The notes under the pieces were generated by a model. That model searched no databases. It saw only the letters and a program-made list of their open reading frames with translations, and had not been told where the DNA came from. The position numbers and the translations under genes were made by a program. Source: Bacteroidota bacterium (GTDB taxonomy: Bacteria > Bacteroidota > Ignavibacteria > UBA10030 > UBA6906). From it: 64,000 nt of DNA. The stretch spans positions 47,621 to 111,620 of the forward strand of contig JBFLYO010000007.1 in NCBI GenBank assembly GCA_040756745.1, read 5' to 3'. Numbering within the stretch: position 1 is the stretch's first letter; each line of letters starts with the position of its first letter. Shown piece by piece: positions 1,816 to 42,672 of the stretch.

Positions 1816-3225
1816 TTACCCGGCCGAAAGCAGTTCAGGCGCCTTTAATCCCAGCTCTTTCATCTTGTTCTGCAGCAGTCGCCGGTCCATCCCCAGCGCA
1901 CGTGCAGTATGCGACACGTTCCAGCGATTGTTTCGCAGTCCCTCAAGAACGAAGTTGCGTTCAAGTTCTCTCATGTAGTCGTCCTTGAGCTTCTTCTTTG
2001 CTGAGAGAAAGGCCTGGTATGAGGTCGGGAGCGATTCCGATTCACCCGAGCCCGTGAGATGCAAATCAGAAGGAAGATCATCGATCGTGACGTAGTCCCC
2101 GCCTGCGCCTACCATCGCGCGCACGACGATGTTTTCCAGTTCGCGCACATTGCCCGGCCATCGATGGGATTTCATGTATGTCAGCGCGTTTGGCTCGAAG
2201 CCCTTCAGATCTTTCCCGATTTCGTTCTTATGCTTCACCAGGAAGTGCTGGGCGAGCAACGGGATGTCTTCTGTACGTTCGCGCAACGGCGGGAGCTGAA
2301 CACTGACGACGTTCAACCGGTAATACAGGTCGCTCCGGAAGCGATGAGCTTCGACCTCCGCGCGCAGCGTCCGGTTTGTGGCGGCGACGATGCGTACGTC
2401 GAGCGCAATGGCTTCGCTCCCTCCGACCCGGACGATGACCTGATCTTCCAGTGCGCGCAACAGCTTCACCTGCAGGTCGAGCGGAAGCTCGCCGATTTCG
2501 TCAAGGAAAAGGGTGCCGCCGTGCGCCTGCTCGAACTTGCCGATCCGCCGGGCGGTCGCTCCAGTGAAGGCGCCTTTCTCGTTTCCGAAGAATTCGCTTT
2601 CCAACAATTCGCGCGGGATGGCTCCGCAGTTCACAGCAACAAACGACTGCGATGCGCGCGGGCTTGCGGAATGTATCGCTCGTGCGATAAGCTCTTTCCC
2701 CGTCCCGGTTTCCCCCTCAATCAACACCGTGAATGTTGTCCCCGCGATCTGCTGGACGCTGTCCAGGATCGCCTGCATTCTCGCGCTTGCCGTAACGATT
2801 GCACTGCTGCCCGCGAGGGTCTGCAATTGTATCCGCAGCCGTTCGTTCTCGCGGGCAAGGCGTGCGTGCTGCGCCGCACGCGTGAGCGCAAGGTCGAGCT
2901 GGTCAAGGTTCACCGGCTTCACCACATAGTCAAATGCCCCTTCCTTCATCATGGCAACGGCATTCTCAATCGTTCCGAACGCCGTCATGATGATGACCGG
3001 AACCGGGCGATCCAGCTTCCTCACTTCACGCAACACCGCAGCGCCGTCGATGTCAGGCATTTTCAGATCTGTGACGACGATATCGACGGGGCGCTTCCGC
3101 AGCAGCTCAAGCGCCGCACCTCCGTTTTCGGCAAGGTGGAGTTCGTACGTCTGCTGCAGGTTCACTTCGAGGATACGCCGTGTCTTTTCCTCGTCGTCGG
3201 CAATCAACAGATGCAGTTTGCTCAT
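1816..3225 (-). CDS. sigma-54-dependent two-component response regulator (NtrC/AtoC family)
   Basis: Receiver domain (LLIADDE..VVTDLKMPDIDG), AAA+ core with GETGTGKE and the GAFTGA loop (EKGAFTGATA), and a C-terminal Fis-type HTH. Confidence 0.9.
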   Translation of the reverse strand: MSKLHLLIADDEEKTRRILEVNLQQTYELHLAENGGAALELLRKRPVDIVVTDLKMPDIDGAAVLREVRKLDRPVPVIIMTAFGTIENAVAMMKEGAFDYVVKPVNLDQLDLALTRAAQHARLARENERLRIQLQTLAGSSAIVTASARMQAILDSVQQIAGTTFTVLIEGETGTGKELIARAIHSASPRASQSFVAVNCGAIPRELLESEFFGNEKGAFTGATARRIGKFEQAHGGTLFLDEIGELPLDLQVKLLRALEDQVIVRVGGSEAIALDVRIVAATNRTLRAEVEAHRFRSDLYYRLNVVSVQLPPLRERTEDIPLLAQHFLVKHKNEIGKDLKGFEPNALTYMKSHRWPGNVRELENIVVRAMVGAGGDYVTIDDLPSDLHLTGSGESESLPTSYQAFLSAKKKLKDDYMRELERNFVLEGLRNNRWNVSHTARALGMDRRLLQNKMKELGLKAPELLSAG

Positions 3226-5348
3226 TGGCGAATTCCGGCAATGGGAAGTTCAATGGAGAACGTCGTTCCACCGGTCCCGGACACGAACGAGATCTCCCCT
3301 CCGATGGCGTGGACCATCATGTAGACGATGGGGAGGCCCAGCCCTGTCCCCGCCTGTTTTGTCGTGTAGAACGGGTCGAAGATTTTCGTGTGAAACTCGG
3401 GCGGGATCCCCCCTCCCGTGTCTCGTACCGCGACCACAATGCGTTCGTCCCTGCGGCCGGCCGTGAGCACAAGCTCTCCGCCGCCGGTCATCGCCTCGAC
3501 AGCGTTCAGCCCAAGGTTCATCAAGGCGCGTTCGAGGTGCCGGGGCGACGTGGTAACCGGAGGCAGCGATTCGCAGATCTCTTTCCGGATGCGGACCCCT
3601 GAGGCATCGCCCCGGGGCTGAAGCGCCGCCATGACGTTGTCGATTACTTCGACGAGGTTCACTTCCTCCCACACGGGCGTGTGGGGTTTGGCAAACTGGA
3701 GGAATTCCTCCACGGTGCGGTTGAGTCGATCAGTTTCTTCCAGAATGTATCTCCCTGTTTCCTGATGCAGCTTGCCATTGTCGGGGTTCCTGAGAATCGT
3801 CTGCGCCGAGGTTGCGATGATGTTTAGAGGATTGCGAAATTCATGCGCAATGCCGGCAGTCAGTCTCCCCAGCGCCGCCAGTTTTTCGTTTTGCGCCGCG
3901 CGGAGCTCCTCGGCACGCATCCGTTCTAATAAGCGATTTCGCTCGACACCCAATGCGACTTCGTTGGCAAAGACGGCAAGGAATTCCTCGTCATCGAAGG
4001 TGTATGGCCGGGAGGATTTCTTCGGGCCGACCAGCAGCATTCCGACCGGTCCCTTTTCGCCCAGCAGAGGAACAAGATAGCCGCCGGTAAAGGGCTCAAG
4101 CGTCCCCTTTTGCTCCTCTGCGCATGCCCTTAAGACCTCGGCGACTTCGCGCGGTTTATGGTCGTCGGCCAGGAGCCGCATCAGATCGTCATCGAATCGG
4201 AGGGTCTGATGCGGTGGCAGGACGCCAGGCATTGTCCTCACTTCCTCCCCCGCAACCAGGATGATGCCATCAGAGGCCGAGAGCGTCTCCATCAGAAACT
4301 TCCGTACCGCTGCCGCTAGCTCGGGCAGGCTTGTGATATGGAAGAGAGCCCGGGAGAAACGGATGAACTGCTGGCGGCGGCGGAACATGCTTTGCGAGAA
4401 GAGATTCTCCACCAGTGATTGGATCCGAACGATGAGCGGTCGGAACGCGAGCGCAAGCAGCAGGATCAGCAGAACTTCCAGCACAACCGAATCCACGTCG
4501 AGTTGTTTCCCCAAGGTCTCCGAAATGTTCTTAATGACAATGAGGTAGAACGCGAAGATCAGTCCCGTCACAACGGAATACGCGAGGCCCTGTTTGCCGA
4601 GCCGGCGGAGAACGAGGAGGCGGTTGCCGAGCACAGCGTAGGCGAACGAGACACTGATCAGCAGGAAGAGGATTCTCGAGGCATAGAAATGCACGGCCTC
4701 GTGGTGACGCAGCACATCGAGCAGAATGACGAGCACGGCGAAACCGACCGTGCCGAGCAGGATCGTGCCGATCCGGTATCGTTCCTTTCGTACCTGCGTC
4801 CCCCTGAGTTGAACAACCAAGTTGCCGACCCCCCAGGAAAGATGACCGAGCACCGTTGCAAACATTGCCGCGTCGAGCACACCGCCAGAGGTATTCACAA
4901 CATAACAGTAGACCCCCTGCGCCGTGAAGCGGTGGAGCTCAAGCGGCTGGAAAAGACCAAGACCCGCGAGGATCGAGAACAGGAGCGGGAGGACGAGGAA
5001 GAGGGGCCGGACCGGCAGACGGTCGAACCGGGAGTGAATCGAGCAGGGGAACGAAAACGAAAGGAGGAGGAAGAACGTGGAGGCGAACAGCAGGGCTGCG
5101 ACCATGATCGCGCCCCCGATGGCGGCGGAATCCGGGGTGGAGCTATTCACCACGACAACATCGGCGACCCCCCAAAGAGCGAAGCAGAAGATGAGCAGGG
5201 CGAATAGTCTGTGGGCGCGGCTCCTGAGGTTGTCGAGGAGGACGATGATGACGAGCGAAATGTTGATTCCGATCGTCAGCAACGAAGGCAGTGAATATGA
5301 CGACAAGAGAAGGTCCTCCGCTGGTGCCTCTTGACACAAAGGTACCAA
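3222..5348 (-). CDS. membrane sensor histidine kinase (multi-TM N-terminus, GAF-like middle, HisKA/HATPase_c)
   Basis: H-box AHEFRNPLN and G-boxes DTGGGIP and GTGLGL. About 8 hydrophobic segments at the N-terminus. ATGA overlap with the regulator gene. Confidence 0.85.
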   Translation of the reverse strand: MVPLCQEAPAEDLLLSSYSLPSLLTIGINISLVIIVLLDNLRSRAHRLFALLIFCFALWGVADVVVVNSSTPDSAAIGGAIMVAALLFASTFFLLLSFSFPCSIHSRFDRLPVRPLFLVLPLLFSILAGLGLFQPLELHRFTAQGVYCYVVNTSGGVLDAAMFATVLGHLSWGVGNLVVQLRGTQVRKERYRIGTILLGTVGFAVLVILLDVLRHHEAVHFYASRILFLLISVSFAYAVLGNRLLVLRRLGKQGLAYSVVTGLIFAFYLIVIKNISETLGKQLDVDSVVLEVLLILLLALAFRPLIVRIQSLVENLFSQSMFRRRQQFIRFSRALFHITSLPELAAAVRKFLMETLSASDGIILVAGEEVRTMPGVLPPHQTLRFDDDLMRLLADDHKPREVAEVLRACAEEQKGTLEPFTGGYLVPLLGEKGPVGMLLVGPKKSSRPYTFDDEEFLAVFANEVALGVERNRLLERMRAEELRAAQNEKLAALGRLTAGIAHEFRNPLNIIATSAQTILRNPDNGKLHQETGRYILEETDRLNRTVEEFLQFAKPHTPVWEEVNLVEVIDNVMAALQPRGDASGVRIRKEICESLPPVTTSPRHLERALMNLGLNAVEAMTGGGELVLTAGRRDERIVVAVRDTGGGIPPEFHTKIFDPFYTTKQAGTGLGLPIVYMMVHAIGGEISFVSGTGGTTFSIELPIAGIRQ

Positions 5349-5405
5349 GGGATTCGATGGATATCAAATCGCGAATGGAGCTGCTGTTCTGAGTCATCGG
5401 AGTTC

Positions 5406-5493
5406 AGAAGATAACCGCAAAGGCGCGAAGGGCGCAATGGAAGATTCCCTCTCTGCGTCCTCGGCGCCCACCTGGCGACCTTTGCGTTTATCT
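5406..5493. repeat. hairpin formed by two inverted GATAACCGCAAAGG-type units
   Basis: AGAAGATAACCGCAAAGGCGCGAAGG (5406-5432) and its imperfect reverse complement GCGACCTTTGCGTTTATCT (about 5475-5493). A third unit lies at 9848-9874. Confidence 0.6.
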
Positions 5494-5495
5494 CC

Positions 5496-5603
5496 TACGC
5501 CCGCGCAAAGAGGCCGATCTTCGTGATCGCCGTCTTCAGCAGCTCCTCCCCCGCTCCATCCAGCCGACAAAACTGCCTGATCTCGCGGGTCTGCGTCGAT
5601 TGG
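5496..5603 (-). pseudogene. orphan fragment of the comM/yifB 3' region
   Basis: 74/74 nt with one mismatch to 10689-10762 inside the intact comM. It translates to ..[31 protein letters not shown] then a stop. No flanking comM sequence. Confidence 0.75.
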
Positions 5604-5775
5604 TCAAGGATTGCACGTTGGGAAGGGGGGACTGCAAGTCAGCCCAGAGGCCGGCGGCTCGCCTGGCACTGCTCGTTGACAACTTACATCTTGGAACGGG
5701 ATGCGGCGGCCTGAGCCCGGGTTCAGCCCCAATCGCAGCACTTCAGTCTTTCAACGACGTTTTGTATAATGGGGC

Positions 5776-6459
5776 ATGCACATCCTGATAGTTGAAGATC
5801 AAAGGAAGGTAGCCAACGCTTTGGCAGACGGCCTGCGGCGTGATGGCTTCAAAGTGACGCTCGCAACTGATGGAGAGGAAGGTTTCTTTCTCCTGAACTC
5901 AAGTAGGGTCGATCTTCTCGTTCTGGACCTTGGGCTTCCGAAGCGTGATGGCATCGAGATTCTCCGGACAATGAGACAAAGAAGGATCAACATTCCAGTC
6001 ATGGTACTTACTGCCCGTGACTCCGTCGAAGATCGGGTTCTCGGTCTCGAAAGTGGAGCTGATGACTACCTGGTGAAGCCATTTGCTTTCCCGGAACTGC
6101 TTGCCAGAGTACATGCTCTTCTGAGAAGAACCAAGGAACAGAATGAAACGACGTTGACTATCGGTGATCTTGCATTGGATCTGAAGACTCGCAGAGCAAC
6201 CCGTGGACCGCACCCTCTTTCACTCACAGCCAAGGAACTGGAGCTCTTGGAATACCTCTTGCGAAGCAAGAACAGTGTTGTCTCAAGAGAGATGATTGTT
6301 CGCGATGTGTGGCATGCAACTGAACGGGCTACACCTCTTGACAATGTGATCGATGTTCACATCGCCCATCTCAGAAAGAAGATCGACGGTCCCTTCGAAC
6401 TCAAGCTTCTCCACACCTTGAGGGGAGTAGGATTCATGGTGAGTCTGATGAAACCATGA
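5776..6459 (+). CDS. OmpR-family response regulator, heavy-metal (CusR/CopR/CzcR) type
   Basis: Receiver domain plus winged helix. Contains ..DYLVKPFAFPELLARVHALLRR.. and ..DNVIDVHIAHLRKKID....LHTLRGVGFMV, as in heavy-metal regulators. Confidence 0.85.
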   Translation: MHILIVEDQRKVANALADGLRRDGFKVTLATDGEEGFFLLNSSRVDLLVLDLGLPKRDGIEILRTMRQRRINIPVMVLTARDSVEDRVLGLESGADDYLVKPFAFPELLARVHALLRRTKEQNETTLTIGDLALDLKTRRATRGPHPLSLTAKELELLEYLLRSKNSVVSREMIVRDVWHATERATPLDNVIDVHIAHLRKKIDGPFELKLLHTLRGVGFMVSLMKP

Positions 6460-7856
6460 GACTTGCCGGGCTTCGTCATATCCGTTTCCGATTGGCCCTC
6501 TGGAGCATCCTCGTGTTTGGGGGGATCCTCGTCTTGTATGCATCCGGAACGTCGTGGTTCTTCCTCAAGACTCTGAATGACCAACTGGATGCAAGCCTGA
6601 AGGAAGACTTGGAACTGGTCGACCAAATGCTGGTGCATTCGGTGGAGGGAGGGGCACCCATCGACATTCATGGCGAGAATATCAACGAGCTTGAACGCTT
6701 CCTGGAAATATGGTCGATGGATGGTCAGCTCATCTATCGAAGCAAGACCCTCGGAGCGCATGCGCTAGGTCCCGCGCCTGACACCACGGGTGTGGGCACA
6801 ACCACACGAATCCACTCACACACACTCTCGGACGGAACTCAACTGAGGGTTGCCGAAAAGCTCCATTTCCACGGAGCAGCCCATAGACTGATTCGCCTGG
6901 GGGTGAGCGAAGAGGGACACTTCTCGAATGTCAATCGGTTCGTGAGGCTGATCTTGATTGGTATTCCAGTCGCGCTGCTCCTCGTGAGCGTCAGTGCCTA
7001 CTGGATGGCGCGAGGAGCGCTAAGACCCATTGACGTCATGGCGTCTGCGGCAAGACGCATGGGAACCTCCGACTTGTCCGAGCGGATTCCTGTCAGGAAT
7101 CCCGATGACGAGCTCGGCCGCCTGGCCTCAGCATTTAACGAGCTTCTCGCAAGGATACAGAAGTCGTACGATCAGCTCAAGCGATTCACATCCGATGCCT
7201 CACATCAGCTTCGAACGCCGTTGACTGCGATGAGAAGTGTTGGCGAAGTAGGACTGCAAGTCGGTCGGTCAGCAGAAGAGTACCGTGAAGTCGTGGGCAG
7301 TATGCTTGAAGAGAGCACACGGTTAACCAAGTTGGTCGACAGCCTGCTGTTTCTGACGCGTGCAGATGCCGGAAAGCACCGCCTGAATGTGGATCGACTT
7401 GACCTCCTGGAATACGTGAGGGAGACAACCGACCTGTTGGGCGTCCTCGCCGATGATAAGCATCAGCAGATGAGGGTTGATGGGAAGCCTGGTATCATGA
7501 TCCGTGCGGATCGGTCGTTGCTCTGCCAGGCGCTATTGAACCTCGTCGACAATGCGATCAAGTTCACTCCTGAAGGGGGAAGTATTGCAATTCGTGTCGG
7601 AGTGAATGGCGCCCAACAGGCGTTCGTGGATGTCGTCGATTCCGGTCCAGGGATTTCACCGGAGCACCTCGAGAGCATTTTCGAAAGATTCTTTCGTGCT
7701 GACAAAAGCAACAGTCCGGGGGCAGGTCTTGGGTTAGCTGTCGCCAGATGGGCGGTTGAAGCACATGGCGGCACGATCACCGTAGAGAGTAACCAGGGTT
7801 CTGGCTCCGCATTTCACGTTGTCCTGCCACTCGACCCACGCCTTACGAAACCTTAA
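6456..7856 (+). CDS. heavy-metal-type sensor histidine kinase (CusS/CopS-like)
   Basis: Two TM segments flank a periplasmic domain, followed by HAMP, H-box FTSDASHQLRTPLTAM, DSGPGISPE and GAGLGLAV. ATGA overlap with the regulator gene. Confidence 0.85.
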   Translation: MRLAGLRHIRFRLALWSILVFGGILVLYASGTSWFFLKTLNDQLDASLKEDLELVDQMLVHSVEGGAPIDIHGENINELERFLEIWSMDGQLIYRSKTLGAHALGPAPDTTGVGTTTRIHSHTLSDGTQLRVAEKLHFHGAAHRLIRLGVSEEGHFSNVNRFVRLILIGIPVALLLVSVSAYWMARGALRPIDVMASAARRMGTSDLSERIPVRNPDDELGRLASAFNELLARIQKSYDQLKRFTSDASHQLRTPLTAMRSVGEVGLQVGRSAEEYREVVGSMLEESTRLTKLVDSLLFLTRADAGKHRLNVDRLDLLEYVRETTDLLGVLADDKHQQMRVDGKPGIMIRADRSLLCQALLNLVDNAIKFTPEGGSIAIRVGVNGAQQAFVDVVDSGPGISPEHLESIFERFFRADKSNSPGAGLGLAVARWAVEAHGGTITVESNQGSGSAFHVVLPLDPRLTKP

Positions 7857-8099
7857 GCAAGTCTTCAGGAAGACTTAAGTTGAACTCCTAGACTATTCTC
7901 AGATACCTTCTCTTGGTTGGTGTGGTCCGAGAAGCGTATCGGCAGCACCCACGTCCTACCGCTCTGGCCTCCAGAATATATGTACGCATTGTTGGGGAGC
8001 GAAGGTGGAACAACGCCAATCGGAAGCTCCAACCTCAGCTGCCTTCCTGCTCATTCCATCAATCGCATAACTTCCCAGATCAGACCAAGGAGCAAGCTC

Positions 8100-9650
8100 A
8101 TGCCACAGATGATACGATCACACCTGTTGATTCTCCTGCTGACCCTGCTTGCGACATCTATCATGCATGCTCAGATTACACGTCAGCAATGTTACCTGTG
8201 CCATGCAAACCCCGGCCTCAGCAAGACAATCACCCTTTCGACGGGATCTACCGAAACGATTCCGCTGTATGTAGACACCCTGAAGTTCAATGCGAGCCTC
8301 CACAGTGCTCTCTTGTGTGTCCAATGCCATACCGATATCACTCCTGCAAACTTGTACAACCATTCGGGGTCGAACTCGCTGCCCAAGAGCTACGGTGGCT
8401 GGGCCCGCTTTTCGGCCAAGAATGACACCGTTACTCCGGGGGGCGAGCGGACACGCAACTACTACACAGCAGCCTCCATGTCGTGCAACAAAAGCGGGTG
8501 CCATCCCCAGCAAGCTGCATTTGATTCCTCGACGCATCATGTTACGTGGCGACAAAAGCAGGCACACGTGCATACGGTGAACGGCGAATCGGTTGGCGAG
8601 GCGTATGTGTTCAATGACTGCAATCGCTGCCACACGTCTTGCGCGACGTGCCACTTCAAGTCAAATAAGGTTCAGAAGATCGGCGGCGATGTCCTCGCAA
8701 TATGGGACAGCCTACAGTTCTTTGGAGACGGGGGGTCACTCTCTCGCTCAGGAGGGTTCACCGAGTATGCAATGGACTGGACCGTGAACGTCGAATCCCA
8801 CACCTTCTATACAGGAGACAGCCTCAGGGCAACCAACGCGGTATGTCAATCCTGCCACCTCGGGTACTACAAACCACCGATGTACGGCTTCCTCTCCGAG
8901 GATCCACCATATCCGAAAGCATGGGGAAGCAACATCCGTCGGCATCCACAGACACAGGAGCTGACACTGAGCCAGCAACATTCGTCAAGAAAGTGCGCCC
9001 AATGCCACACGAATGTTCATGCGTATCCCGGCCGCCAGCACAACTGGCAGGAAGAGGGCGACGTCAAGTGCCAGACATGTCATACGATGACAAATCACTA
9101 TCCGCAGCACACAACGGTGGACTGCATCTCGTGCCACTTCACAGGGTTCGGAAGGTCAAAGGGACAAAATGCACATGACGTATGGCGATGGCCTGTCGCG
9201 AGTAACCGCGTACGTCCGCTTGTGATGAAGTACAACGAAGCAATCAACTGGTATCCACACACGATAGTCCGTCCCGACACCAATACCTCCTGTGCGGGCA
9301 AGTGTCATTACGAGGGGAACCTCATCGGGGCATCAACGATTACCAGCGTTCCAATCTCAAAAGAAGTGCCGGGTTCGTTTGCGCTGGAACAGAACTACCC
9401 GAACCCATTCAACCCGAATACGACCATCCGATTCGCCATTCCGACCAAAGAACTCGTGAGAATTGCGGTGTACGATGTACTCGGCAGATTCGTGACCACA
9501 CTGGTGAACGAAACGACGGAGCCCGGGACGTACAAGATTCTGTGGAATGGCATTGATCACGCCGGTATGCAGGTGTCGAGCGGAGTTTACTTCTACAGGA
9601 TTGAAGCAGGTACATTCAGTTCTTCCAGGAAGATGTTGCTGGTGAGGTAG
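8100..9650 (+). CDS. secreted multihaem c-type cytochrome with C-terminal T9SS sorting domain
   Basis: Start reassigned to MPQMIRSHLLILLLTLLATSIMHAQ (signal peptide, AAGGAG upstream). Eight CXXCH motifs (CYLCH, CVQCH, CNRCH, CATCH, CQSCH, CAQCH, CQTCH, CISCH) plus CNKSGCH and CAGKCH variants. The last ~85 aa (LEQNYPNPFNPNTTIRF..SGVYFYRIEAG..KMLLVR) match the Por secretion tail pattern. Confidence 0.85.
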   Translation: MPQMIRSHLLILLLTLLATSIMHAQITRQQCYLCHANPGLSKTITLSTGSTETIPLYVDTLKFNASLHSALLCVQCHTDITPANLYNHSGSNSLPKSYGGWARFSAKNDTVTPGGERTRNYYTAASMSCNKSGCHPQQAAFDSSTHHVTWRQKQAHVHTVNGESVGEAYVFNDCNRCHTSCATCHFKSNKVQKIGGDVLAIWDSLQFFGDGGSLSRSGGFTEYAMDWTVNVESHTFYTGDSLRATNAVCQSCHLGYYKPPMYGFLSEDPPYPKAWGSNIRRHPQTQELTLSQQHSSRKCAQCHTNVHAYPGRQHNWQEEGDVKCQTCHTMTNHYPQHTTVDCISCHFTGFGRSKGQNAHDVWRWPVASNRVRPLVMKYNEAINWYPHTIVRPDTNTSCAGKCHYEGNLIGASTITSVPISKEVPGSFALEQNYPNPFNPNTTIRFAIPTKELVRIAVYDVLGRFVTTLVNETTEPGTYKILWNGIDHAGMQVSSGVYFYRIEAGTFSSSRKMLLVR

Positions 9651-9695
9651 CGTCTCATGTCAGAGCGACCGGCCAGCAGGTCGCTCCCTTTCGGA

Positions 9696-9729
9696 CCCCG
9701 ATCCGATTCTTCGGATCGGGGTCTTTTGT
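9696..9729 (+). terminator. rho-independent terminator after the cytochrome gene
   Basis: CCCCGATCCGA-TTCT-TCGGATCGGGG followed by TCTTTTGTT. Confidence 0.75.
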
Positions 9730-9778
9730 TGGTGTTTCATTCTTGGTTCTTTTTATAGAGGTAGCACGACACAATCCT

Positions 9779-9798
9779 CCCGCCTGCCGGCGGGCAGG
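9779..9798. repeat. loop-less relative of the 50-nt hairpin repeat stem
   Basis: CCCGCCTGCCGGCGGGCAGG equals the stem arms of the 22643/42605 repeat without the CTCTCTGA loop. It is preceded by CACAATCC, the reverse complement of GGATTGTG. Confidence 0.4.
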
Positions 9799-9847
9799 CA
9801 AACAGATCCCAACGCCTTACATCGGAAGGCCGTGAGGAAACATTTCA

Positions 9848-9874
9848 CCTTCGCGTCCTTTGCGGTTATCTTCT
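9848..9874 (-). repeat. third GATAACCGCAAAGG unit (inverted relative to 5406-5432)
   Basis: Reverse complement AGAAGATAACCGCAAAGGACGCGAAGG versus AGAAGATAACCGCAAAGGCGCGAAGG at 5406. Confidence 0.6.
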
Positions 9875-9944
9875 CGCCGGAGTTGCTTGACCGCAACGAC
9901 GCAACGGATGCGCAAGCAGGTCCTACCCGAGAGCTTCTGATGAA

Positions 9945-9992
9945 GCACCAAATCACAAACCCCAAATTCCAAACAAATTCCAATAACCCAAG
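9945..9992 (+). repeat. A/C-rich arm (GCACCAAATCACAAA..) flanking the four-helix-bundle gene
   Basis: 36/43 identical to 10381-10423. Its CCAAACAAATTCCAAT is complementary to about 10478-10493. Confidence 0.6.
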
Positions 9993-10010
9993 AAGAGAAC
10001 GACGAAAATA

Positions 10011-10364
10011 CTAGGGATTGCCTTGTGATGCCTTGAGAATCGCACTGAAGATTTTCAAGAGCTCTTGTGACTCTTTGATCAACCCTTCCTGTTCAGAGCC
10101 CTGTCCGTCCCCCGGTGTAACCAGGCGCAGCCAGTAGCCGCTCTCTTTTACCTCTTTCCTGCTGATTCGTATTCTCATCAGGAAATCTCTTTTGCCAAGT
10201 GCTTCATTTGCCTCAATGTAATTGGCGCCAACAGAGCCGGAAGACCTGATGACCTGTCGACCATACTCACAATTCGAGAGATCCTTTGGAAGGCGCTTCA
10301 CAAAATCGCGCACAGCTCTTGCAAAGCGTTCGGTCCTCTCTTCAAGGTCGTACTGACCGGCCAC
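10011..10364 (-). CDS. four-helix-bundle protein (23S rRNA intervening-sequence protein / bAvd-like family)
   Basis: 117 aa, GTG start with AGGAG 6 nt upstream. ..SSGSVGANYIEANEALGKRDFLMRIRISRKEVKESGYWLRL.. fits the family pattern (ANIAEG-like motif, E..YWL). AT-richer than its surroundings. Confidence 0.75.
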   Translation of the reverse strand: MAGQYDLEERTERFARAVRDFVKRLPKDLSNCEYGRQVIRSSGSVGANYIEANEALGKRDFLMRIRISRKEVKESGYWLRLVTPGDGQGSEQEGLIKESQELLKIFSAILKASQGNP

Positions 10365-10380
10365 GATGACTCCTGAGATA

Positions 10381-10548
10381 GCACCAAATCACAAAACCCA
10401 AATCTCAAACAAGCACCAATTACCGAAATCTGAAATGCTCCAAACAGGCGGCCGTTTCCGTCATTTCGGTCTTGAGAATTGGAATTTGTTTGTGATTTGA
10501 TGCTTGGGATTTGGTGCTTGTTTGTGAATTGGTGCTTGAGATTTGGTC
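10381..10548 (+). repeat. palindromic A/C-rich element, copy E1
   Basis: Arms GCACCAAATCACAAAACCCAAATCTCAAACAAGCACCAAT.. and their complement surround a core CCGAAAT..AAACAGGCGGCCGTTT..ATTTCGG. It ends 5 nt from the comM stop. Confidence 0.7.
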
Positions 10549-10552
10549 ATTC

Positions 10553-12088
10553 CTACATGATGCTTCTATCGAGGCTCCTATACTGAATCGCCTCCCCGAT
10601 ATGTTCCGGCCTGATCTCCGGTGCTGCTGCAAGATCAGCAATGGTTCTCCCCACCTTGAGGATCCTGTCATACGCCCGGGCCGAGAGCCCGATCTTCGTG
10701 ATCGCCATCTTCAGCAGCTCCTCCCCCGCTCCATCCAGCCGACAAAACTGCCTGATCTCGCGCGTCTGCATGTCGGCATTGGCATACATCCCCTTCAGTC
10801 CGCGGAACCGCGCCGCCTGATGATCACGGGCATTCGCGACACGCTCGCGTATGATATCCGACTTTTCGCCGCTGTCATTGCTCGATAACTCCCGGTACCG
10901 CACGGCGGGAACCTCGATGTGAAGATCGATCCGGTCCAGAAGCGGACCGGAGATCTTCGTCATATACTTCTGAATAGCTGTCGCCTGGCAGGTGCATTCC
11001 TTCGTCGGATCAGTAAAGTAGCCGCAGGGGCAGGGGTTCATCGCGCAGACAAGCATGAAATTGGCAGGATACTCAACGGAGAGTTTCGATCGGCTGATCG
11101 TCACACGGCCGTCCTCGAGGGGCTGGCGCAGCACTTCAAGCACATTGCGGGCAAACTCGGGGAGCTCATCCAGAAACAACACCCCGTGGTGTGACAGCGA
11201 GATCTCCCCAGGCCGCGGCACACTCCCTCCCCCTACCAGCGCGGCATCTGAAATCGTGTGATGCGGAGACCGGAACGGGCGGGTCGCCACAAGAGCAGTG
11301 TCTGAGGCAAGAATCCCTGCTACCGAATGGATTTTCGTGGTCTCGAGGGCTTCTTCGAAGGTGAGCGGAGGAAGGATGGTGGGAAGCCGCTTGGCAAGCA
11401 TGGTCTTTCCGGAGCCCGGCGGCCCAATCATGATGATGTTGTGAGCACCGGCGGCAGCAACCTCCAGGGCTCGCTTGACCGCAAGCTGCCCCTTCACATC
11501 GGCGAAATCGGCCTGGTATTTCTGATCGTGTGCGAAGAGCTCCTTCACGTCGACCGAGAGCGGAGCAAGCCGGCGATGGTCTGCTTCCAGAAACTCCACC
11601 ACTTCCTTGAGCGACGACATGGGGTACACTGCCAGCCCCTGCACCATCGCCGCCTCCTTGCCGTTTTCGCGCGGCACAACCATCCCCCGGATTCCTCGCT
11701 TTCGGACCTCGAGGGCGATGGGGAGCGACCCGTGAATCGGCCGCAGCGTGCCGTCCAGGGCAAGCTCCCCAAGCAGCACGAACTCCTGCAAGGCCTCGTG
11801 CATCACCTGCCCGCTCGCCGCCAGGATCCCGACCGCCATCGGCAAGTCGAACGAAGAGCCTTCTTTCCTGATGTCAGCCGGAGCGAGATTCACCGTCAGC
11901 TTGCGGGTCGGAAATTCGTAGCTGCAGTTCCTCACCGCTGCAGTGATCCGCTCGCGGCTCTCGCGGACGGCGTTGTCGGGAAGGCCGACGATCGCAAACC
12001 CCGGGATCATCTTCTCGAGGTGCGTCTCCACCTCGACGATGTACGCATTAATCCCGTACGTCGCCCCGCTCAACACCTTCGAGAGCAT
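10553..12088 (-). CDS. comM: ComM/YifB Mg-chelatase-like AAA+ ATPase
   Basis: Start moved to [21 protein letters not shown]. Lon-like N-domain, Walker [15 protein letters not shown], and C-terminus ..[27 protein letters not shown] typical of YifB/ComM. Confidence 0.9.
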
Positions 12089-12287
12089 CGCCTCCCGCCG
12101 CTCGTGATCCAATTTTCCCCGAACAATAAAGCCGGGCCACACGGGCCATCAGCTCCGTCCCGCCTGTGGTGCGGAGACAACGCCCGTGCAGCACCGACCT
12201 CTCTCTTCACCGGTACCTCAACTATTGATACACATGGGATGGCGGATTTACGAAGCAAAAAGCCCCGGAGGAAGCTCGAAGAACGTA

Positions 12288-12412
12288 AGCACCAAATCTC
12301 AAACAAATCCCAATGATCCAAACCGAAATGACCGAAACGGCCTGCCGTTTGGAGCATTACAGATTCTGGTGATTGGTGCTTGTTTGAGATTTGGGATTTG
12401 TGATTTGGTGCT
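12288..12412 (-). repeat. palindromic A/C-rich element, copy E2 (inverted relative to E1)
   Basis: The reverse complement aligns with 10381-10505 at roughly 85% identity by eye, including the core ..CCAAAC.GC.GGCCGTTTC.GTCATTTCGGT. Confidence 0.7.
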
Positions 12413-12456
12413 TCCTCCCTGCCTTTATCGCGCGGAAGTACTGAGTGCGGAGCAGC

Positions 12457-13206
12457 TTAATGAGGATGGCGGTGCTTCAGGATGTGCGGCTTTTCGAGGC
12501 CGTGGGTGAGCATCAGGGGTTCATTGGAGAGAAGTTCAACGGTCGGGCCGGAGGCGATGACCGTGCCCTCATCCAGTACATACGTGCGCGAGCAGACCTC
12601 TACAATAAGCTCCAGGTCGTGAGAGGCGATAACCTTTGCCGCAGGCAGCCGGCGCAAGAGCTCGACAAGCTCTCTCCTCCCGCGCGGATCGAGATCGCCC
12701 GTTGGCTCGTCAAGAACAAGGATGCGTGAGCTGCAGGCAAGCAACCCGGCAAGACACACCCTCTGCTTTTCCCCGCCGCTCAGGTGATGGGGGGAACGGG
12801 ACTCAAAGCCTGCAAGCCCGACTGTCCCGAGAGCTTCGCGGACGACCTCTCGAAGCGCTTCTTCAGACAGGCCAAGCTGCTGCGGACCGAATGCGACGTC
12901 CTCGAAGACCGTGGGGCAGAACAACTGGTCGTCAGGATCCTGAAACAGGAGCCCCACGTCGCGGTGGATTTCATGGAGGTTTGTCGCATCTACCGGCTGG
13001 CCGAACACATACACTGCGGGCGTGGCCGGGTGCGTTTCGGGCAACAGCCCATTGAGATGAAGAAGCAGCGTGGACTTCCCCGCGCCGTTCGGGCCGACGA
13101 CGCCAACGCACTCCCCTTCCTCCACTTCAAGCGAAACGCCCTTCAGCGCCGACTTCCCGTCGGCGTACGCATACGACAGATCCCGCACCTCAAGAGCCCG
13201 GGTCAC
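12457..13206 (-). CDS. cbiO: ECF (cobalt/nickel-type) transporter ATPase
   Basis: GTG start (VTRALEVRDLSYAY) overlapping the cbiQ stop (GTGA). Contains GPNGAGKSTLL, LSGGEKQRV and LVLDEPT. The longer track ORF is an artefactual N-terminal extension across cbiQ. Confidence 0.85.
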   Translation of the reverse strand: MTRALEVRDLSYAYADGKSALKGVSLEVEEGECVGVVGPNGAGKSTLLLHLNGLLPETHPATPAVYVFGQPVDATNLHEIHRDVGLLFQDPDDQLFCPTVFEDVAFGPQQLGLSEEALREVVREALGTVGLAGFESRSPHHLSGGEKQRVCLAGLLACSSRILVLDEPTGDLDPRGRRELVELLRRLPAAKVIASHDLELIVEVCSRTYVLDEGTVIASGPTVELLSNEPLMLTHGLEKPHILKHRHPH

Positions 13207-13811
13207 CGCCACCCCCGCGCAGTCATTGCCGCGTAGACGCGTTCGGCCCGCTCGACCGAACGGACGAAGAGATGGCCGACGATCCCCGCAGTATGGCGCC
13301 AGGATCGCCGGCCGCGTATGAACATCCTGCTTCTTCGTGCACGGGCCATCCGCTCCGTCTGATCGATGAGCAGAAAAACGTACCGGTACATCAGCGACAG
13401 AATCGTAATGAGGAGGGAGGGCGCGTGAAGCCTGGAGAGCACATCGAGCATGCTGCTGAATCTGGTCGTGTTGGCCAGCAGGATCATGGTCGCCAGGCAG
13501 ATGTTGCTCTTCACGAGCACGCGGGCAGCCATGCTCCACCCTTCGGGTTGCGCGAGGGCAAACAACGCTCCGCCTACGATGAACGGCTGAAGCGTCAGCA
13601 ATCGCCTGAGCATGAATCCCGCCGGTATCCGGGCCATCGCAGCTACGACGCACATCGCCGCCACGAGTCCCCCATAAAACACCATCGGCCATTCCGGGAC
13701 GGCCACAGTAATCACGACGACAGCGAGTGCGCTCCCCATCTTCACCCCGGGGGCGATTCTGTGTATCGCCGAATCCCCCCTCGCATACCGATCAATAAAA
13801 TTGTGCTTCAC
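13203..13811 (-). CDS. cbiQ: ECF transporter transmembrane (T) component
   Basis: GTG start. Multi-TM protein with ..ERMARARRSR.. and ..AERVYAAMTARG.. , the CbiQ/EcfT signature region. Confidence 0.8.
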   Translation of the reverse strand: MKHNFIDRYARGDSAIHRIAPGVKMGSALAVVVITVAVPEWPMVFYGGLVAAMCVVAAMARIPAGFMLRRLLTLQPFIVGGALFALAQPEGWSMAARVLVKSNICLATMILLANTTRFSSMLDVLSRLHAPSLLITILSLMYRYVFLLIDQTERMARARRSRMFIRGRRSWRHTAGIVGHLFVRSVERAERVYAAMTARGWR

Positions 13812-13912
13812 TCTTCGCCTTCAACTCCTTATTCATCACTCTTAACTCCTTCACCTCTCTCCTCTCATCTCTCTTCTCTCTCATCTCTCTTCTCTCCTCC
13901 CTTCTCCTCCCC
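13812..13912. repeat. degenerate heptanucleotide tandem tract (CTCNNNN on plus, GA-rich on the coding strand)
   Basis: ctcttcg|ccttcaa|ctcctta|ttcatca|ctcttaa|ctccttc|acctctc|tcctctc|atctctc|ttctctc.. It fills the cbiM-cbiQ spacer and encodes the CbiM tail GEEKGGEKRDEREER. Confidence 0.6.
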
Positions 13913-14827
13913 CAGCGTCCTCGCCAACACATAGCCCACAACAAACATCAATGCCGTACCCACCACCCCCGCCGCCGCTGTCGCCGCTACGGGTGAGTCC
14001 AGGCCCGGAATCATGTACCCCGCCATGGGCGCAGCGCCGTAATGTTCAGCCCGATCGAGGATGCCGAGTTGCATAACGACGGACTCAAGTCCGTCGGGCA
14101 TGGGTGAAGAGAACGGGGCCACGAACAGCACGAGACACAGCGTGACAACTCCCCCGGCCAACACAAAGAACCCCATCCCCTCCCCCGTCGCTTCACCTGT
14201 CGCCGGCCCGGCCAGGTCCGGACGAGTGCGCATGATGACCGACAGAACCAACAGCGTGATCACCCCTTCGGCGCCGCCAATCAGCAAATGGACGTTCACC
14301 ATCGCTGTCACTCCCACGTCCCATGGAATCGTCCCCGACCAGGCGAGTTCCCCCGCACAGAAAAGCGCACTGAGGATCGTCGCACTCCAACCCCCCATCG
14401 CCGCGGCGACCAGTCGTCCCCTCTCTCCTGGCAGCAGCCTGCACAGGAGACGATACACGGCGTACCCACCCAGGGGGCCCGCGATGCCGATGTTCAGGAT
14501 GTTCGCCCCCAGTGCGAGCAGCCCCCCATCGGCAAACAGAAAGCACTGAACGAGCAAGACCGCAGTGAGAACGGCAATCGCTGCAGCCGGTCCCAGGAGG
14601 ACGGCCGCCAGCATCCCGCCAGTGAGATGTCCGGACGTGCCCCCCACGACGGGGAAGTTGACCATCTGGGCGGCAAAGACAAATGCAGCCGCGAGTCCGA
14701 TCAGCGGGACTCGCCGACGCGGGAGGGAGCGCTTCAGCGTGCGGAGCGAAACGCCGACGGCAACAGCCGAGAGTGCCGCAGTCGTCACAGCGGTCTTGGT
14801 ATCGAGAAAGCCGTCGGGGATATGCAT
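13865..14827 (-). CDS. cbiM: ECF substrate-capture component CbiM/NikM fused to a PDGLE domain
   Basis: Contains the N-terminal MHIPDGFL motif, 6-7 TM segments, then ..FSSPMPDGLESV.. (literal PDGLE) and a final TM. Confidence 0.8.
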   Translation of the reverse strand: MHIPDGFLDTKTAVTTAALSAVAVGVSLRTLKRSLPRRRVPLIGLAAAFVFAAQMVNFPVVGGTSGHLTGGMLAAVLLGPAAAIAVLTAVLLVQCFLFADGGLLALGANILNIGIAGPLGGYAVYRLLCRLLPGERGRLVAAAMGGWSATILSALFCAGELAWSGTIPWDVGVTAMVNVHLLIGGAEGVITLLVLSVIMRTRPDLAGPATGEATGEGMGFFVLAGGVVTLCLVLFVAPFSSPMPDGLESVVMQLGILDRAEHYGAAPMAGYMIPGLDSPVAATAAAGVVGTALMFVVGYVLARTLGEEKGGEKRDEREER

Positions 14828-14848
14828 GATAAAGAAACGTGCGGACTT

Positions 14849-16390
14849 TCAGGCGCGGACGAGTTCTGCAACCCGCTTCTGTGCAAACGGCACGTGAGCC
14901 GCATATTGAACGGGGGGAAGTTCCAGAAACGTCCGGTAGGATGCTGCGGCATCGGCACTCCGGCCGAGACGTTCCTCAACCAATCCCTTGTTGAGCCATG
15001 CCGACTCGTTTCTCGGATCGACGTCGATCGCTCTGATCAGAGCTGCGAGCGCTTCCTGGAACCGGCCGAGTGTGTACAGGCAGTTGCCGCGGTTGCTCCA
15101 GGCGGACGCATTGTGCTTGTCCGCCTCCGTTGCGGCATCGTAGCACGCGAGCGCCTCTTCGAGCTTGCCAAGCTTCCTGAGACAGACCCCCTTGTTGTTC
15201 CAGGCATCGGAATTCTCCAGCTCCAGTTCAAGCACCTTGGTGTAATGCGCCACGGCCTCTTCGAGATGGCCGAGACTGCTGAGCGAGTATGCCTTGTTGT
15301 ACAGCTCCCACGCCTCAAGGCTTCTGGACTTGTGCGCATCAATGGTTTCTCCCGTCATCCGCTTCAGCAGGGTTTCGAGGTCCGCGCGGAGCGCGTAGAA
15401 CGACTGATACCGGGCGCTTGGTTCTTTCTGCAGGCAACGCTGAATGAAGGGAAACACGGGAGACGTCAGCGGCACCACGCCCGCCTCGGTGTGGAGCCGG
15501 TGCATTTCCCGCCATACGGTGGCGGGATCCTTTTTCATGTCCGGGAGCCGGAACGTCGTCTCGTACGGGAGCCGCCCGCGAGACGCCATCTGATACAGAA
15601 CGACGCCGAAGCTGTAAATGTCGCTCCGTTCGTCGCATCGCGATGCGTTCTGAAACTGTTCCGGGGGCATGTACGTTGGCGTACCGAACCCCGAAAACTC
15701 GGGCAGCATGCGCCGTCGTCGCTGGACGGGGTCCATGGCAGCCCGCGCACGGGACATATCGATGACCTCCGCGAAGCCGAAGTCGGTGATTTTCACCACC
15801 TTATCCTTGTCGATCATGATGTTCGCCGGCTTCACGTCGCGGTGGCAGCGGATGCCGCGCGCATGTGCGTGTTCCATGCCGTGGCAGAACTGGACAGACC
15901 AGCGGAGCGTCTGGTTGAGGTCGGGGGGCCTGCGGGCGAGGTACCCTTCGAGCGAATTGAGGCCCTCCTCGTTCGGCTCGATGTATTCCATGCCGATATA
16001 CAGGCGACCGGCAAGCTCTTCGATGAAGTGAGCCCTGACGACGTAGGGATGTCGCTCAAGTTCGACCCAGACCTTTGCTTCCTTCCTGAATTGATCCCGC
16101 GTTTCGCGGTCTTCGAGGTATTCGTCACGCAGAGTCTTGAGGGCGGAGACAGCGCGCGTTTCACGGGAGTACACCAGATACACCACGCTGAAACCCCCGA
16201 GCCCGAGAACACCAAGCACCTGATAGGAAGTGCCGATGACGTCCCCTTTCTTATAGACGGCACCCGGGTGGTCCGCCTTGATGCGAACGACCACGCCGCC
16301 GGGGAGACGCGTGGTGGAGAGGCCGAAGCGGGACGGGGGTGGGGGCGCCCCATGCAGCAGCCCGCCGAGCATCCTTGTCAGCCTGTTCAT
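14849..16390 (-). CDS. Hanks-type Ser/Thr protein kinase with C-terminal TPR repeats
   Basis: Start moved to MNRLTRMLGG, because the track ORF runs into truA. Contains GLGGFSVVY..ALK, HRDVKPANIM, DFG and PEQ, followed by at least 5 TPR-like repeats (AWNNKGVCLRKLGKLEEALACYD..). Confidence 0.85.
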   Translation of the reverse strand: MNRLTRMLGGLLHGAPPPPSRFGLSTTRLPGGVVVRIKADHPGAVYKKGDVIGTSYQVLGVLGLGGFSVVYLVYSRETRAVSALKTLRDEYLEDRETRDQFRKEAKVWVELERHPYVVRAHFIEELAGRLYIGMEYIEPNEEGLNSLEGYLARRPPDLNQTLRWSVQFCHGMEHAHARGIRCHRDVKPANIMIDKDKVVKITDFGFAEVIDMSRARAAMDPVQRRRRMLPEFSGFGTPTYMPPEQFQNASRCDERSDIYSFGVVLYQMASRGRLPYETTFRLPDMKKDPATVWREMHRLHTEAGVVPLTSPVFPFIQRCLQKEPSARYQSFYALRADLETLLKRMTGETIDAHKSRSLEAWELYNKAYSLSSLGHLEEAVAHYTKVLELELENSDAWNNKGVCLRKLGKLEEALACYDAATEADKHNASAWSNRGNCLYTLGRFQEALAALIRAIDVDPRNESAWLNKGLVEERLGRSADAAASYRTFLELPPVQYAAHVPFAQKRVAELVRA

Positions 16391-16433
16391 CGCGCAGTAG
16401 TGTGTGAGGGTTCGCGTCCCGGCAGGCGAGCGC

Positions 16434-17162
16434 TCAGTAGATGACCTCTTGCAGGAAGAGCCCCTGCGGAGGCGCGGCCATCCCCGCCTTGCGCCGATCC
16501 TTCGCCGCCATGATCTCACGGAACGCAGACACCGGGATAAAGCCGCGCCCGACATCCACCATGGTGCCCACGAGGGCACGCACCATGCCGTGCAGGAAGC
16601 GGTTCCCCCGGATTTCGTACTCATACATGCCGGGGGTTTCCTGCCACACCGACTTCGTCACAGTGCAGCGGTAGTGGCGCGCCTCGGGGTCGTTCTTGGC
16701 GAACGACTCAAAATCGTTGTCGCCGATGATCTGCGCCGCTACCGCGTTCATCGAGACGAGATTCAGGTCGTATTTCACGTACCACTGGTAGTGCCGTCCG
16801 ATCGCCGTCGGCTTCATGGAAATGTAGTACTTATACACACGCTCCCTGGCGTCGTACCGCGCATTGAAGCCCTCCGGAACCTCCTCCACGGCATGGACAT
16901 AGATGTCCTCCGGCAGGATTCCATTGAGGCCGCTCTGCATCGAGCCTACCCCCATCAGTGAATTAGTCCGGAAGCTCGCGACCTGGCCCCGCGCATGCAC
17001 GCCCGCATCGGTCCGTCCGGATCCAATCAGATTGATCGGTTCCTGGAGGATCTGATCAAGCACCTTCGTGATCTCCTCCTGGACACTGCGGCCGTTGGTC
17101 TGCGCCTGCCAGCCGACAAAGTTCGTGCCGTCGTATTCAATAAGCAGTTTGATATCGCGCAT
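16434..17162 (-). CDS. truA: tRNA pseudouridine(38-40) synthase
   Basis: MRDIKLLIEYDGTNFVGWQAQ..GSGRTDAGVHARGQVA.. is the TruA signature. Confidence 0.9.
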   Translation of the reverse strand: MRDIKLLIEYDGTNFVGWQAQTNGRSVQEEITKVLDQILQEPINLIGSGRTDAGVHARGQVASFRTNSLMGVGSMQSGLNGILPEDIYVHAVEEVPEGFNARYDARERVYKYYISMKPTAIGRHYQWYVKYDLNLVSMNAVAAQIIGDNDFESFAKNDPEARHYRCTVTKSVWQETPGMYEYEIRGNRFLHGMVRALVGTMVDVGRGFIPVSAFREIMAAKDRRKAGMAAPPQGLFLQEVIY

Positions 17163-17174
17163 GGTCCGTGATGG

Positions 17175-17936
17175 TCAAAAACTCCGTTGCACCGTGAGCA
17201 TGACACCGTGGGGCGCCGCAGGGGATCCCAGGATCTCCGCACCGAGCCGGAGATCACCGAGCGCATCGTCCTGCGCCGCGTTCTGCGCTATCGCCGCCCG
17301 GGCGGCATTGATGGCGCTGGCGACGTGATTGACAAGGATCGCCGCAACGACAAACTTCCGGTTGTTATACATCGTCTCGCCCCGGATCCGCTCTTCGCGG
17401 AATGCGTGCCGGGACGCCTCTGCGTCCCATTGCCATGCATACCCGAGGGCGGGATCGTAGACACGGGAGAGGTCCCTGTCGCGGAGTTTTTTGTCGTTGT
17501 ACTCCGCCAGTGAGTTGAAGTTGCCTACGTCCACGTAGAGCTGGTCGTCCTTTACTGGCGCCATGAGCGACGCATGCGCTGAGGCAAAGACCCGTGCGTC
17601 GTCGCGGAGGGCGTTTCCCGAAATTTCAAACGCCGCGTAGGTGATCCAGAGAACCCCCTCAGCGATCAGAAAATACTTGCCGGAGCCGAAATCTCCCGTA
17701 TACACTTCACCCATGCCGGGAAGGATCAGGGAGTATATGGCTGCAAGCCCCGGCGTTTTCCGGTCGGCGGCTCCGCCCGTCGGCGGCAGCATTCCGTCTC
17801 CGTTGACCGCAACGGCGGCCGGAAGGCCAAACAGGTCGAGACAGATCCCGGCGCGCGTCTGCGCCGGACCCGAGGGGAGATTCTCAGCATGCAGGGGGAG
17901 AGCAAGGAAAGCGCAGCCGGTCAGGATCCATCGCAT
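17175..17936 (-). CDS. hypothetical exported/membrane protein
   Basis: Start moved to MRWILTGCAFLALPLHA (signal-like). No family recognised with confidence. Confidence 0.5.
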   Translation of the reverse strand: MRWILTGCAFLALPLHAENLPSGPAQTRAGICLDLFGLPAAVAVNGDGMLPPTGGAADRKTPGLAAIYSLILPGMGEVYTGDFGSGKYFLIAEGVLWITYAAFEISGNALRDDARVFASAHASLMAPVKDDQLYVDVGNFNSLAEYNDKKLRDRDLSRVYDPALGYAWQWDAEASRHAFREERIRGETMYNNRKFVVAAILVNHVASAINAARAAIAQNAAQDDALGDLRLGAEILGSPAAPHGVMLTVQRSF

Positions 17937-17976
17937 TGTTGCCACTGTCAGACTCCAGGTAGAGAGATGCCGCTGT

Positions 17977-22619: not shown

Positions 22620-22745
22620 TCTCAATTTCGGATTGTGGAATGCGCCCGCCTGCCTCTCTGAACTCTCTGAGGCGGGCAGGGATTGCGGAATAAGTCTCCC
22701 TTCCTCTCTGATTACTGACTTCTGCCAACTGACTTCTCCTGTTCC
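22620..22745 (+). repeat. hairpin repeat copy R1 embedded in heptad tract
   Basis: Core 22643-22692 is CGCCCGCCTGCCTCTCTGAACTCTCTGAGGCGGGCAGGGATTGCGGAATA (8-bp GC stem, 18-nt loop with CTCTCTGA x2). Flanks are 7-nt periodic. The 3' flank supplies the last ispH codons. Confidence 0.8.
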
Positions 22746-42554: not shown

Positions 42555-42672
42555 GTGATACGTGAGAAGTCAGTAGTCGGAAGTCAGAAATCAGAGAGAA
42601 ATCGTATTCCGCAATCCCTGCCCGCCTCAGAGAGTTCAGAGAGGCAGGCGGGCGCAATCCACATTCCGCGAT
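42555..42672 (-). repeat. hairpin repeat copy R2 (inverted relative to R1)
   Basis: 42605-42654 is the exact reverse complement of 22643-22692 (50/50, checked base by base). The flanks are heptad-periodic (gaagtca|gtagtcg|gaagtca|gaaatca). Confidence 0.85.

Follow-up and report, generated by a model that had tools for sequence, protein, structure and literature searches.

Results

Repeats derived from comM bracket a distinct block

We analysed a 64,000-nt stretch of a contig from a Bacteroidota bacterium (JBFLYO010000007.1; this whole 64-kb stretch is called the window), in which a block of about 5 kb has probably entered comM, a gene for an Mg-chelatase-like AAA+ ATPase, at its 3′ end. The block lies between the intact gene and a stray fragment of the same gene. 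The locus is the ordinary and now immobile scar that an island left where a conserved gene ends; it has no recombinase and represents no new kind of element. The history that we favour, with a confidence slightly above even, is that foreign DNA recombined into the 3′ region of comM, that comM stayed whole, and that the displaced 3′ end was truncated later.

A repeat finder applied to the window gave one long direct pair, at 5478–5594 and 10653–10769 (117 nt, 88% identity, spacing 5175). The central 55-mer of this repeat occurs exactly twice in the window, both copies being on the minus strand (0 expected, 100 shuffles). Base-by-base comparison of the 74-nt core (5514–5587 against 10689–10762) revealed 1 mismatch in 74 positions, as had been claimed in a sequence-only reading of this DNA made before our analysis. 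The weaker flanking similarity described in that reading was also found, over a total length of about 130 nt instead of about 108 nt. The core has only two copies in the window, one of them inside comM.

The resident copy (10645–10776, minus strand; core 10689–10762) encodes residues 441–473 of ComM, followed by a weakly matching YDRILKVGR. The stray, displaced copy (5470–5601, minus strand) corresponds approximately to codons 441–482 and is 73/74 identical to comM in the core. It has no comM-like flanks and its frame is closed by an in-frame TAG after ..GLFARA; the sequence-only reading had described it in the same terms, as an isolated comM fragment that ends at a stop and has comM sequence on neither side. 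The identity between the two copies is mosaic, with 1/74 mismatches in the core vs 17/44 in the 3′ flank (Fisher P = 7e-8). The first 20 nt past the core toward the comM stop contain 5 mismatches, after which the identity is about 55%. Weak homology of the stray fragment reaches position ~5470 (15/27 matches, P = 0.0016), and no comM-tail-like sequence was found beyond it, the best local alignment being no better than those of shuffles (P = 0.3–0.55). On the other side of the fragment, the similarity ends within a few bases of 5601. The mosaic fits a junction of two diverged comM alleles at a crossover or in a conversion tract, and not a fresh, unaltered duplicate.

The fragment might instead be the by-product of a local rearrangement, in which the block, or the joint between the comM and kinase blocks, was produced by illegitimate recombination or template switching, and about 100 nt of the resident comM were copied in as junction filler; neither a comM-targeting element nor a replacement 3′ end would then be involved. 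A filler copy agrees with a core that is 73/74 identical to its own comM, when the stray copy matches the comM of relatives at only 72–77%, and with a fragment internal to comM that has comM sequence on neither side. It also agrees with the position of the fragment exactly at a break in gene order, with the kinase block of a relative placed 61 kb from comM and in the other order, and with the absence of mobility genes from the block and from the screened open reading frames (ORFs) of the window. However, a fresh copy should be uniform and have sharp ends, whereas the identity observed on the 3′ side drops from 99% to 75–80% and then to ~55%. Filler would also leave unexplained both the coincidence of the repeats with a step in composition and the displaced 3′ ends, with mostly synonymous differences, at three other comM loci (both described below). 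We consider this explanation unlikely.

The intact comM/yifB gene (10553–12088, minus strand, 511 amino acids) is the last gene of an order-conserved block. Its product scored 655 bits against TIGR00368 (cutoff 362) and covered positions 1–94 of the 94 positions of Mg_chelatase_C, in line with the earlier description of an intact ORF. The gene is full length, and the alignment to relatives extends to the last residues, which indicates that the frame is preserved. Recombination between the two repeats would yield a truncated ComM of 472 residues. The block is therefore in effect fixed, because its loss by this route would truncate ComM at residue 472.

Composition and gene content of the block

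The DNA between the repeats (5604–10552) has a G+C content of 53.2%, compared with 60.0% for the window. Maximum-likelihood change points in G+C content were located at 5730 (5670–5750) and 10590 (10530–10790) with a log-likelihood ratio of 37, and both lie within about 130 nt of the inner repeat edges. All 1-kb windows below 54% G+C fall in 5501–11000, which is the sole low-G+C tract of the 64 kb. The tetranucleotide distance was also highest at 5501–10500, about 4 standard deviations over the mean. The G+C content at third codon positions (GC3) of the four block genes was 0.52–0.65, and that of 4 of the 6 measured flanking genes, including comM, was 0.71–0.75; a flanking ABC gene, with a GC3 of 0.63, departs from this range. 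The direction of the difference that had been proposed from hand counts was thus confirmed.

The block consists of four intact genes separated by non-coding gaps of at most 360 nt, which leave no space for a decayed gene. The first gene (5776–6459, plus strand) encodes an OmpR-family response regulator, for which the best family was the heavy-metal family cztR/silR/copR (225 bits, below the cutoff of 279). The second (6456–7856, plus strand) encodes a HAMP-HisKA sensor kinase with the best match to the heavy-metal family cztS/silS/copS (287.2 bits vs a cutoff of 292.6). The third (8100–9650, plus strand) encodes a multihaem c-type cytochrome with 8 CxxCH motifs, a signal peptide-like N-terminus and a type IX secretion C-terminal sorting domain. 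The fourth (10011–10364, minus strand) encodes a four-helix-bundle protein of the 23S rRNA intervening-sequence protein family (TIGR02436/PF05635). None of the four is a recombinase, and the earlier statement that no integrase, transposase or recombinase ORF lies between the repeats holds. The window contains one tRNA, which is far from the block.

The nearest homologues of the cytochrome showed 76–79% amino acid identity and were found in other contexts on contigs of 44% and 55% G+C, and these findings would be compatible with a lower-G+C relative as the source of the block. One of these homologues adjoins a related regulator–kinase pair; the predicted cargo pairing, a metal-type two-component system beside a secreted multihaem cytochrome, is also present in a relative.

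Other comM loci with displaced 3′ ends

We compared 163 other comM loci, each with its own flanks. A second partial copy of comM was found in 4 of them, and in three of the four it was downstream and in direct orientation. The displaced copy in L142 (Ga0068856_100000036, 11540–19098) comprises codons 352–511, reaching the gene end, with 90% amino acid identity. The two copies at this locus differ at third positions in 84 of 111 cases, corresponding to 78 synonymous vs 15 non-synonymous codons, and the 7.1-kb insert encodes a TraG/TrwB-like ATPase and a helix-turn-helix regulator. In L022 (JAQUKH010000006.1, 11543–13700), codons 383–422 are fused to codons 490–513, with 11 synonymous and 1 non-synonymous differences; the insert of ~2 kb has 28% G+C in a locus of 38.5%. 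The copy in L144 (WNGJ01045286.1, 3953–5570; insert of 1.4 kb) covers codons 461–520, is decayed by stops and a frameshift, and starts five codons from the start point of the window copy. No recognisable integrase was found in the inserts of L142 and L022 (Pfam and PHROGs) or in that of L144 (Pfam).

These loci, which come from unrelated bacteria, show that the footprint proposed in the sequence-only reading does occur at comM, and that the displaced end decays by deletion. They form a series that begins with a complete displaced end and leads to a shortened remnant, and the window fragment fits into it as a more truncated member.

Viral collections independently contain breakpoints in comM. 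The start of the L142 copy at codon 352 matches a recurrent truncation of comM (residues 1–351) in about 14 IMG/VR contigs, and many proviral contigs have comM cut at recurrent codons. In the proviral locus L176 (205–1698), comM is cut at about codon 482, where the window fragment ends, and is followed by phage amidase and LPD38 genes. In L184 (10001–14375), the cut is at about codon 351 and is followed by the defence genes AbiU2 and an XhoI-type restriction–modification pair. An exact 33-mer had no match in viral contigs.

Gene order around comM and the kinase operon

The organism is placed in the Ignavibacteria/Bacteroidota neighbourhood. The closest ComM among 5.8 billion proteins was 83% identical, or 84% outside the C-terminal part, and the proteins of the window itself have no record elsewhere in the collections searched. 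ComM relatives reached at most 68% identity in the genome scan and at most 77% in the metagenome scan, the latter being swamped by a generic motif. The gene order 5′ of comM is kept in five relatives, and in L081, L082, L083 and L171 it is kept up to window position ~24 kb; the conserved genes are, in order, an S1 protein, two radical-SAM genes, a pseudouridine synthase, a protein kinase and cobalt transporter genes. The 3′ neighbours of comM are different in every relative. The relatives do not have the block after comM, the nearest of them showing 83–84% ComM identity, and L083 has the four-helix-bundle gene at this site.

The host-composition DNA beyond the stray copy contains an operon for a 7TM-GAF histidine kinase and a sigma-54 response regulator (1816–5306, minus strand). 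This operon is syntenic with L164 and L168, where it is not adjacent to comM. In L168, the sole relative with the kinase block and comM on one contig, 61 kb separate the two and their order is the opposite one. No comM-like sequence was found upstream of the kinase in the relatives L164–L168, and the possibility that the stray fragment is a native part of the kinase operon was rejected on this ground. The stray copy is thus located exactly at a lineage-specific junction, because the kinase block is elsewhere in a relative and the kinase loci have no comM fragment. An empty site with comM followed directly by the kinase operon, for which a search had been suggested, was not seen among the relatives, the nearest of which have 83–84% ComM identity.

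In regards to the kinase start, the mechanical ORF begins at a TTG at 5348, and the gene call in the collection gives 694 amino acids from 5306. Another frame begins with an ATG at 5397 (region 5143–5397). Contigs from four or more independent Logan assemblies of a kinase relative (67% amino acid identity; L164–L167) all terminate at one and the same base, 181 nt before the kinase gene, and these 181 nt are not comM-like. The shared contig end points to a repeat, or to a junction that varies between strains, at the site that corresponds to the stray copy.

Such a fixed break point in several assemblies is what might be expected if the window contig were an assembly chimera, a metagenomic mis-join of strains or organisms through the shared 74-mer. 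One 128-kb contig is the only place in the collections where the window proteins were found, and the composition shifts at the repeats, which is also compatible with a mis-join. However, a single colinear contig contains both repeat copies, and the sequence that separates and borders them is unique, whereas a mis-join normally collapses the repeat to one copy. Moreover, the differing flanks of the copies would require a real stray fragment in some genome, and the same footprint is present in independent assemblies. A chimera is, in our judgement, very improbable.

The kinase operon and the gene for the OmpR-type regulator diverge from a gap of 428 nt, in which the stray fragment sits. This position in a divergent promoter region, and a near-perfect 74-nt core beside diverged flanks that could reflect selection, might point to a function. 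The fragment could give rise to a regulatory RNA, in sense or antisense orientation relative to comM, or serve as a still active site of recombination for excision or mobilisation in trans. Neither an Rfam family nor a sigma-70-like promoter was found in the region of the fragment, and the single terminator-like site near it (5415–5428) is not above the level of shuffles. The sequence TATAAT immediately precedes the start codon of the regulator, and the fragment is therefore probably outside the regulator transcript. In addition, the fragment is conserved in no relative, and excision via the repeats would cost ComM its residues after 472. We regard a function of the fragment as highly unlikely.

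Palindromic and inverted repeats

A palindromic AT-rich repeat element is located between comM and the four-helix-bundle gene (10370–10559), with further copies at 9934–9991 and 12287–12421. Its units, such as AGCACCAAATCACAAA, are found in the 64 kb only around these two genes. Two copies of ~131 nt flank comM in inverted orientation with 86% complementarity, and 58-nt direct copies are present on both sides of the four-helix-bundle gene. The repeat 3′ of comM forms a long predicted hairpin (−58 kcal/mol, z = −3.9). BLAST searches found no copy of the palindromic repeat in the fetched relative loci.

A separate inverted pair (22629–22692 and 42605–42668; 64 nt, 97% complementary, spacing 19.9 kb) is found within or beside intergenic gaps. 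Each copy is a GC-rich hairpin (CCCGCCTGCC..GGCAGGCGGG-like) with GGATTGCGGAAT flanks, and the pair looks like a second family of the repetitive extragenic palindromic or terminator-like kind.

A diversity-generating retroelement was also considered, given the Avd-like PF05635 protein and the repeat at the 3′ part of a gene. It was rejected: no reverse transcriptase was present among the screened ORFs, and the mismatches (T/C, G/C and C/T) are not adenine-specific.

Discussion

Proposed history of the locus

The bracketed block, its composition and the comparable loci are best accommodated by insertion and later truncation. We infer three steps: a crossover within comM, the arrival of the present comM tail with the insert, and a subsequent deletion. 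A piece of about 5 kb, derived from a relative of lower G+C content, would have recombined into comM within codons ~441–475, and the old 3′ end of comM would have been pushed to the far border of the insert. comM would have stayed whole because the incoming DNA brought its own comM-like 3′ end. A later deletion would have removed the last ~29 codons from this displaced part, probably together with adjoining DNA, and would so have brought the fragment next to the sigma-54 kinase operon. Either a site-specific integrase, whether supplied in trans or lost in the meantime, or the homologous (Campbell-type) recombination of a circular fragment could account for the crossover.

Several observations weigh against this history. 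The displaced copy ends ~29 codons before the comM stop, unlike the prediction of the model, and an extra deletion step is needed because the stray copy does not have these last codons. The island footprint of the sequence-only reading is upheld for the composition-distinct bracketed block, for the intact comM and for the occurrence of the same footprint at other comM loci; a full displaced 3′ end, which it also implies, is not present. The last 40 codons of comM beyond the repeat (10553–10672, minus strand), the candidate replacement 3′ end, have a GC3 of 0.625 vs 0.75 for the whole gene, which is within the spread of comM itself, and their identity to relatives is 0.77 vs 0.79 for the body of the gene. 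The present tail shows no significant foreign signal. The GC3 of the repeated segment is 0.89 in both copies, which is host-like and not block-like, and the codon-position pattern of the two copies has only ~6 informative differences and is not significant (P = 0.18). No recombinase or transposase is among the block genes, and no recombinase was found elsewhere in the window among the screened ORFs, which include most of those of at least 200 amino acids.

The four-helix-bundle gene gives a further point of this kind. It is also present 3′ of comM in L083 (4546–4902; 69% amino acid identity), where the cargo is absent, and no second stray comM copy was found there within 2.8 kb after this gene. 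The window and L083 also resemble each other over the ~25 nt that come right after the stop codon of comM, and the low G+C content of the gene is seen in L083 too. In L084 (1734–1900), comM is directly followed by an isocitrate-dehydrogenase-family gene, the kind found past the four-helix-bundle gene in L083. The four-helix-bundle gene therefore behaves like an inserted module, because it is present in L083 and bypassed in L084. The comM-proximal end of the block may be older than the cargo or may be a separate small insertion, and the block may not be a single insertion because this part is common to L083, which has neither the cargo nor a stray copy.

These comparisons bear on a history of several events at a hotspot. 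The stray fragment would be the attR-like remnant of an older, lost element, the four-helix-bundle module and the two-component system–cytochrome module would have come separately, and occasional gene conversion from comM would have kept the centre of the fragment identical. The module shared with L083 and absent in L084 agrees with this history, as do the 3′ neighbours of comM, which vary in every relative, and the mosaic identity, which fits a conversion tract in an older, diverged fragment. However, one low-G+C tract with two change points is explained more simply by one event, even if the four-helix-bundle gene of L083 likewise has a low G+C content, and a second element has left no independent trace. 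Although much of this history overlaps with the insertion and truncation that we favour, we hold it to be doubtful as a separate account.

Comparison with known systems

Genomic islands and integrative mobilisable elements are known to enter the 3′ end of a protein gene and to restore the gene, as GIsul2 does in guaA and ICESt3 in fda. Cis-mobilisable elements (CIMEs) are decayed, recombinase-less island derivatives with att sites at their flanks. The window block resembles the latter in its flanking att-like repeats and in having no integration or transfer module. SGI1 inserts in the 3′ end of trmE (PMC8409611). The window shares with islands of the SGI1/ICESt3 type the direct repeats derived from the target gene around compositionally distinct cargo, the intact target and the partial gene copy at the far border. 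It differs from them in three respects: neither the block nor its vicinity contains an integrase, the mosaic repeat is long, with a near-identical part of 74 nt and a total length of ~130 nt, and the displaced copy (~codons 441–482) ends before the stop codon.

A parallel with the AbaR islands had been drawn in the sequence-only reading, and it applies to the target gene and not to the type of element. The AbaR/AbGRI islands (Tn6022/Tn6019) in comM of Acinetobacter are Tn7-like transposons with TnsABC, TniQ and TnsF, which interrupt comM with a 5-bp target duplication (PMC11014353). In contrast, the window has an intact comM, a repeat of ~100 nt and no transposition genes among the screened ORFs. 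The 95-kb island iMGE6 of Acidithiobacillus ferrooxidans ATCC 23270 is also located at comM and has an integrase and 14-bp direct repeats (PMC10322971). It is similar to the window block in its target and in its flanking direct repeats; it differs in bearing an integrase, in its 14-bp repeat and in being ~20 times larger.

Further parallels are L142, L022 and L144, which have a direct partial comM copy 1.4–7 kb downstream of an intact comM, foreign-looking DNA between the two and no recognisable integrase; the differences between the copies are mostly synonymous in L142 and L022. Their copies reach the comM end, with an internal deletion in L022 and decay in L144, whereas the window copy ends at ~codon 482, and their cargo is different. 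As a broader and rather speculative proposal, to which we give little credence, the 3′ third of comM would be a loading site that recurrently receives foreign DNA in several bacterial groups, by a route that requires no element-borne integrase, with decay of the displaced ends thereafter, and the window, L022, L142 and L144 would be four stages of one process. A possible route to such a site would be RecA-dependent single crossover of circularised DNA from relatives bearing a comM 3′ end.

Significance of the comM locus

The window gives a dated-looking example of the gain, at a conserved gene of an Ignavibacteria-like genome, of a secreted multihaem cytochrome together with a pair of metal-sensing regulators, and an example of the lock-in of an island after truncation of its far repeat. 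The four independent comM loci with displaced 3′ ends and no recognisable integrase are the one aspect that deserves a wider survey. A systematic survey of comM would be worthwhile because resistance islands and prophages have already been shown to have a hotspot in this gene.

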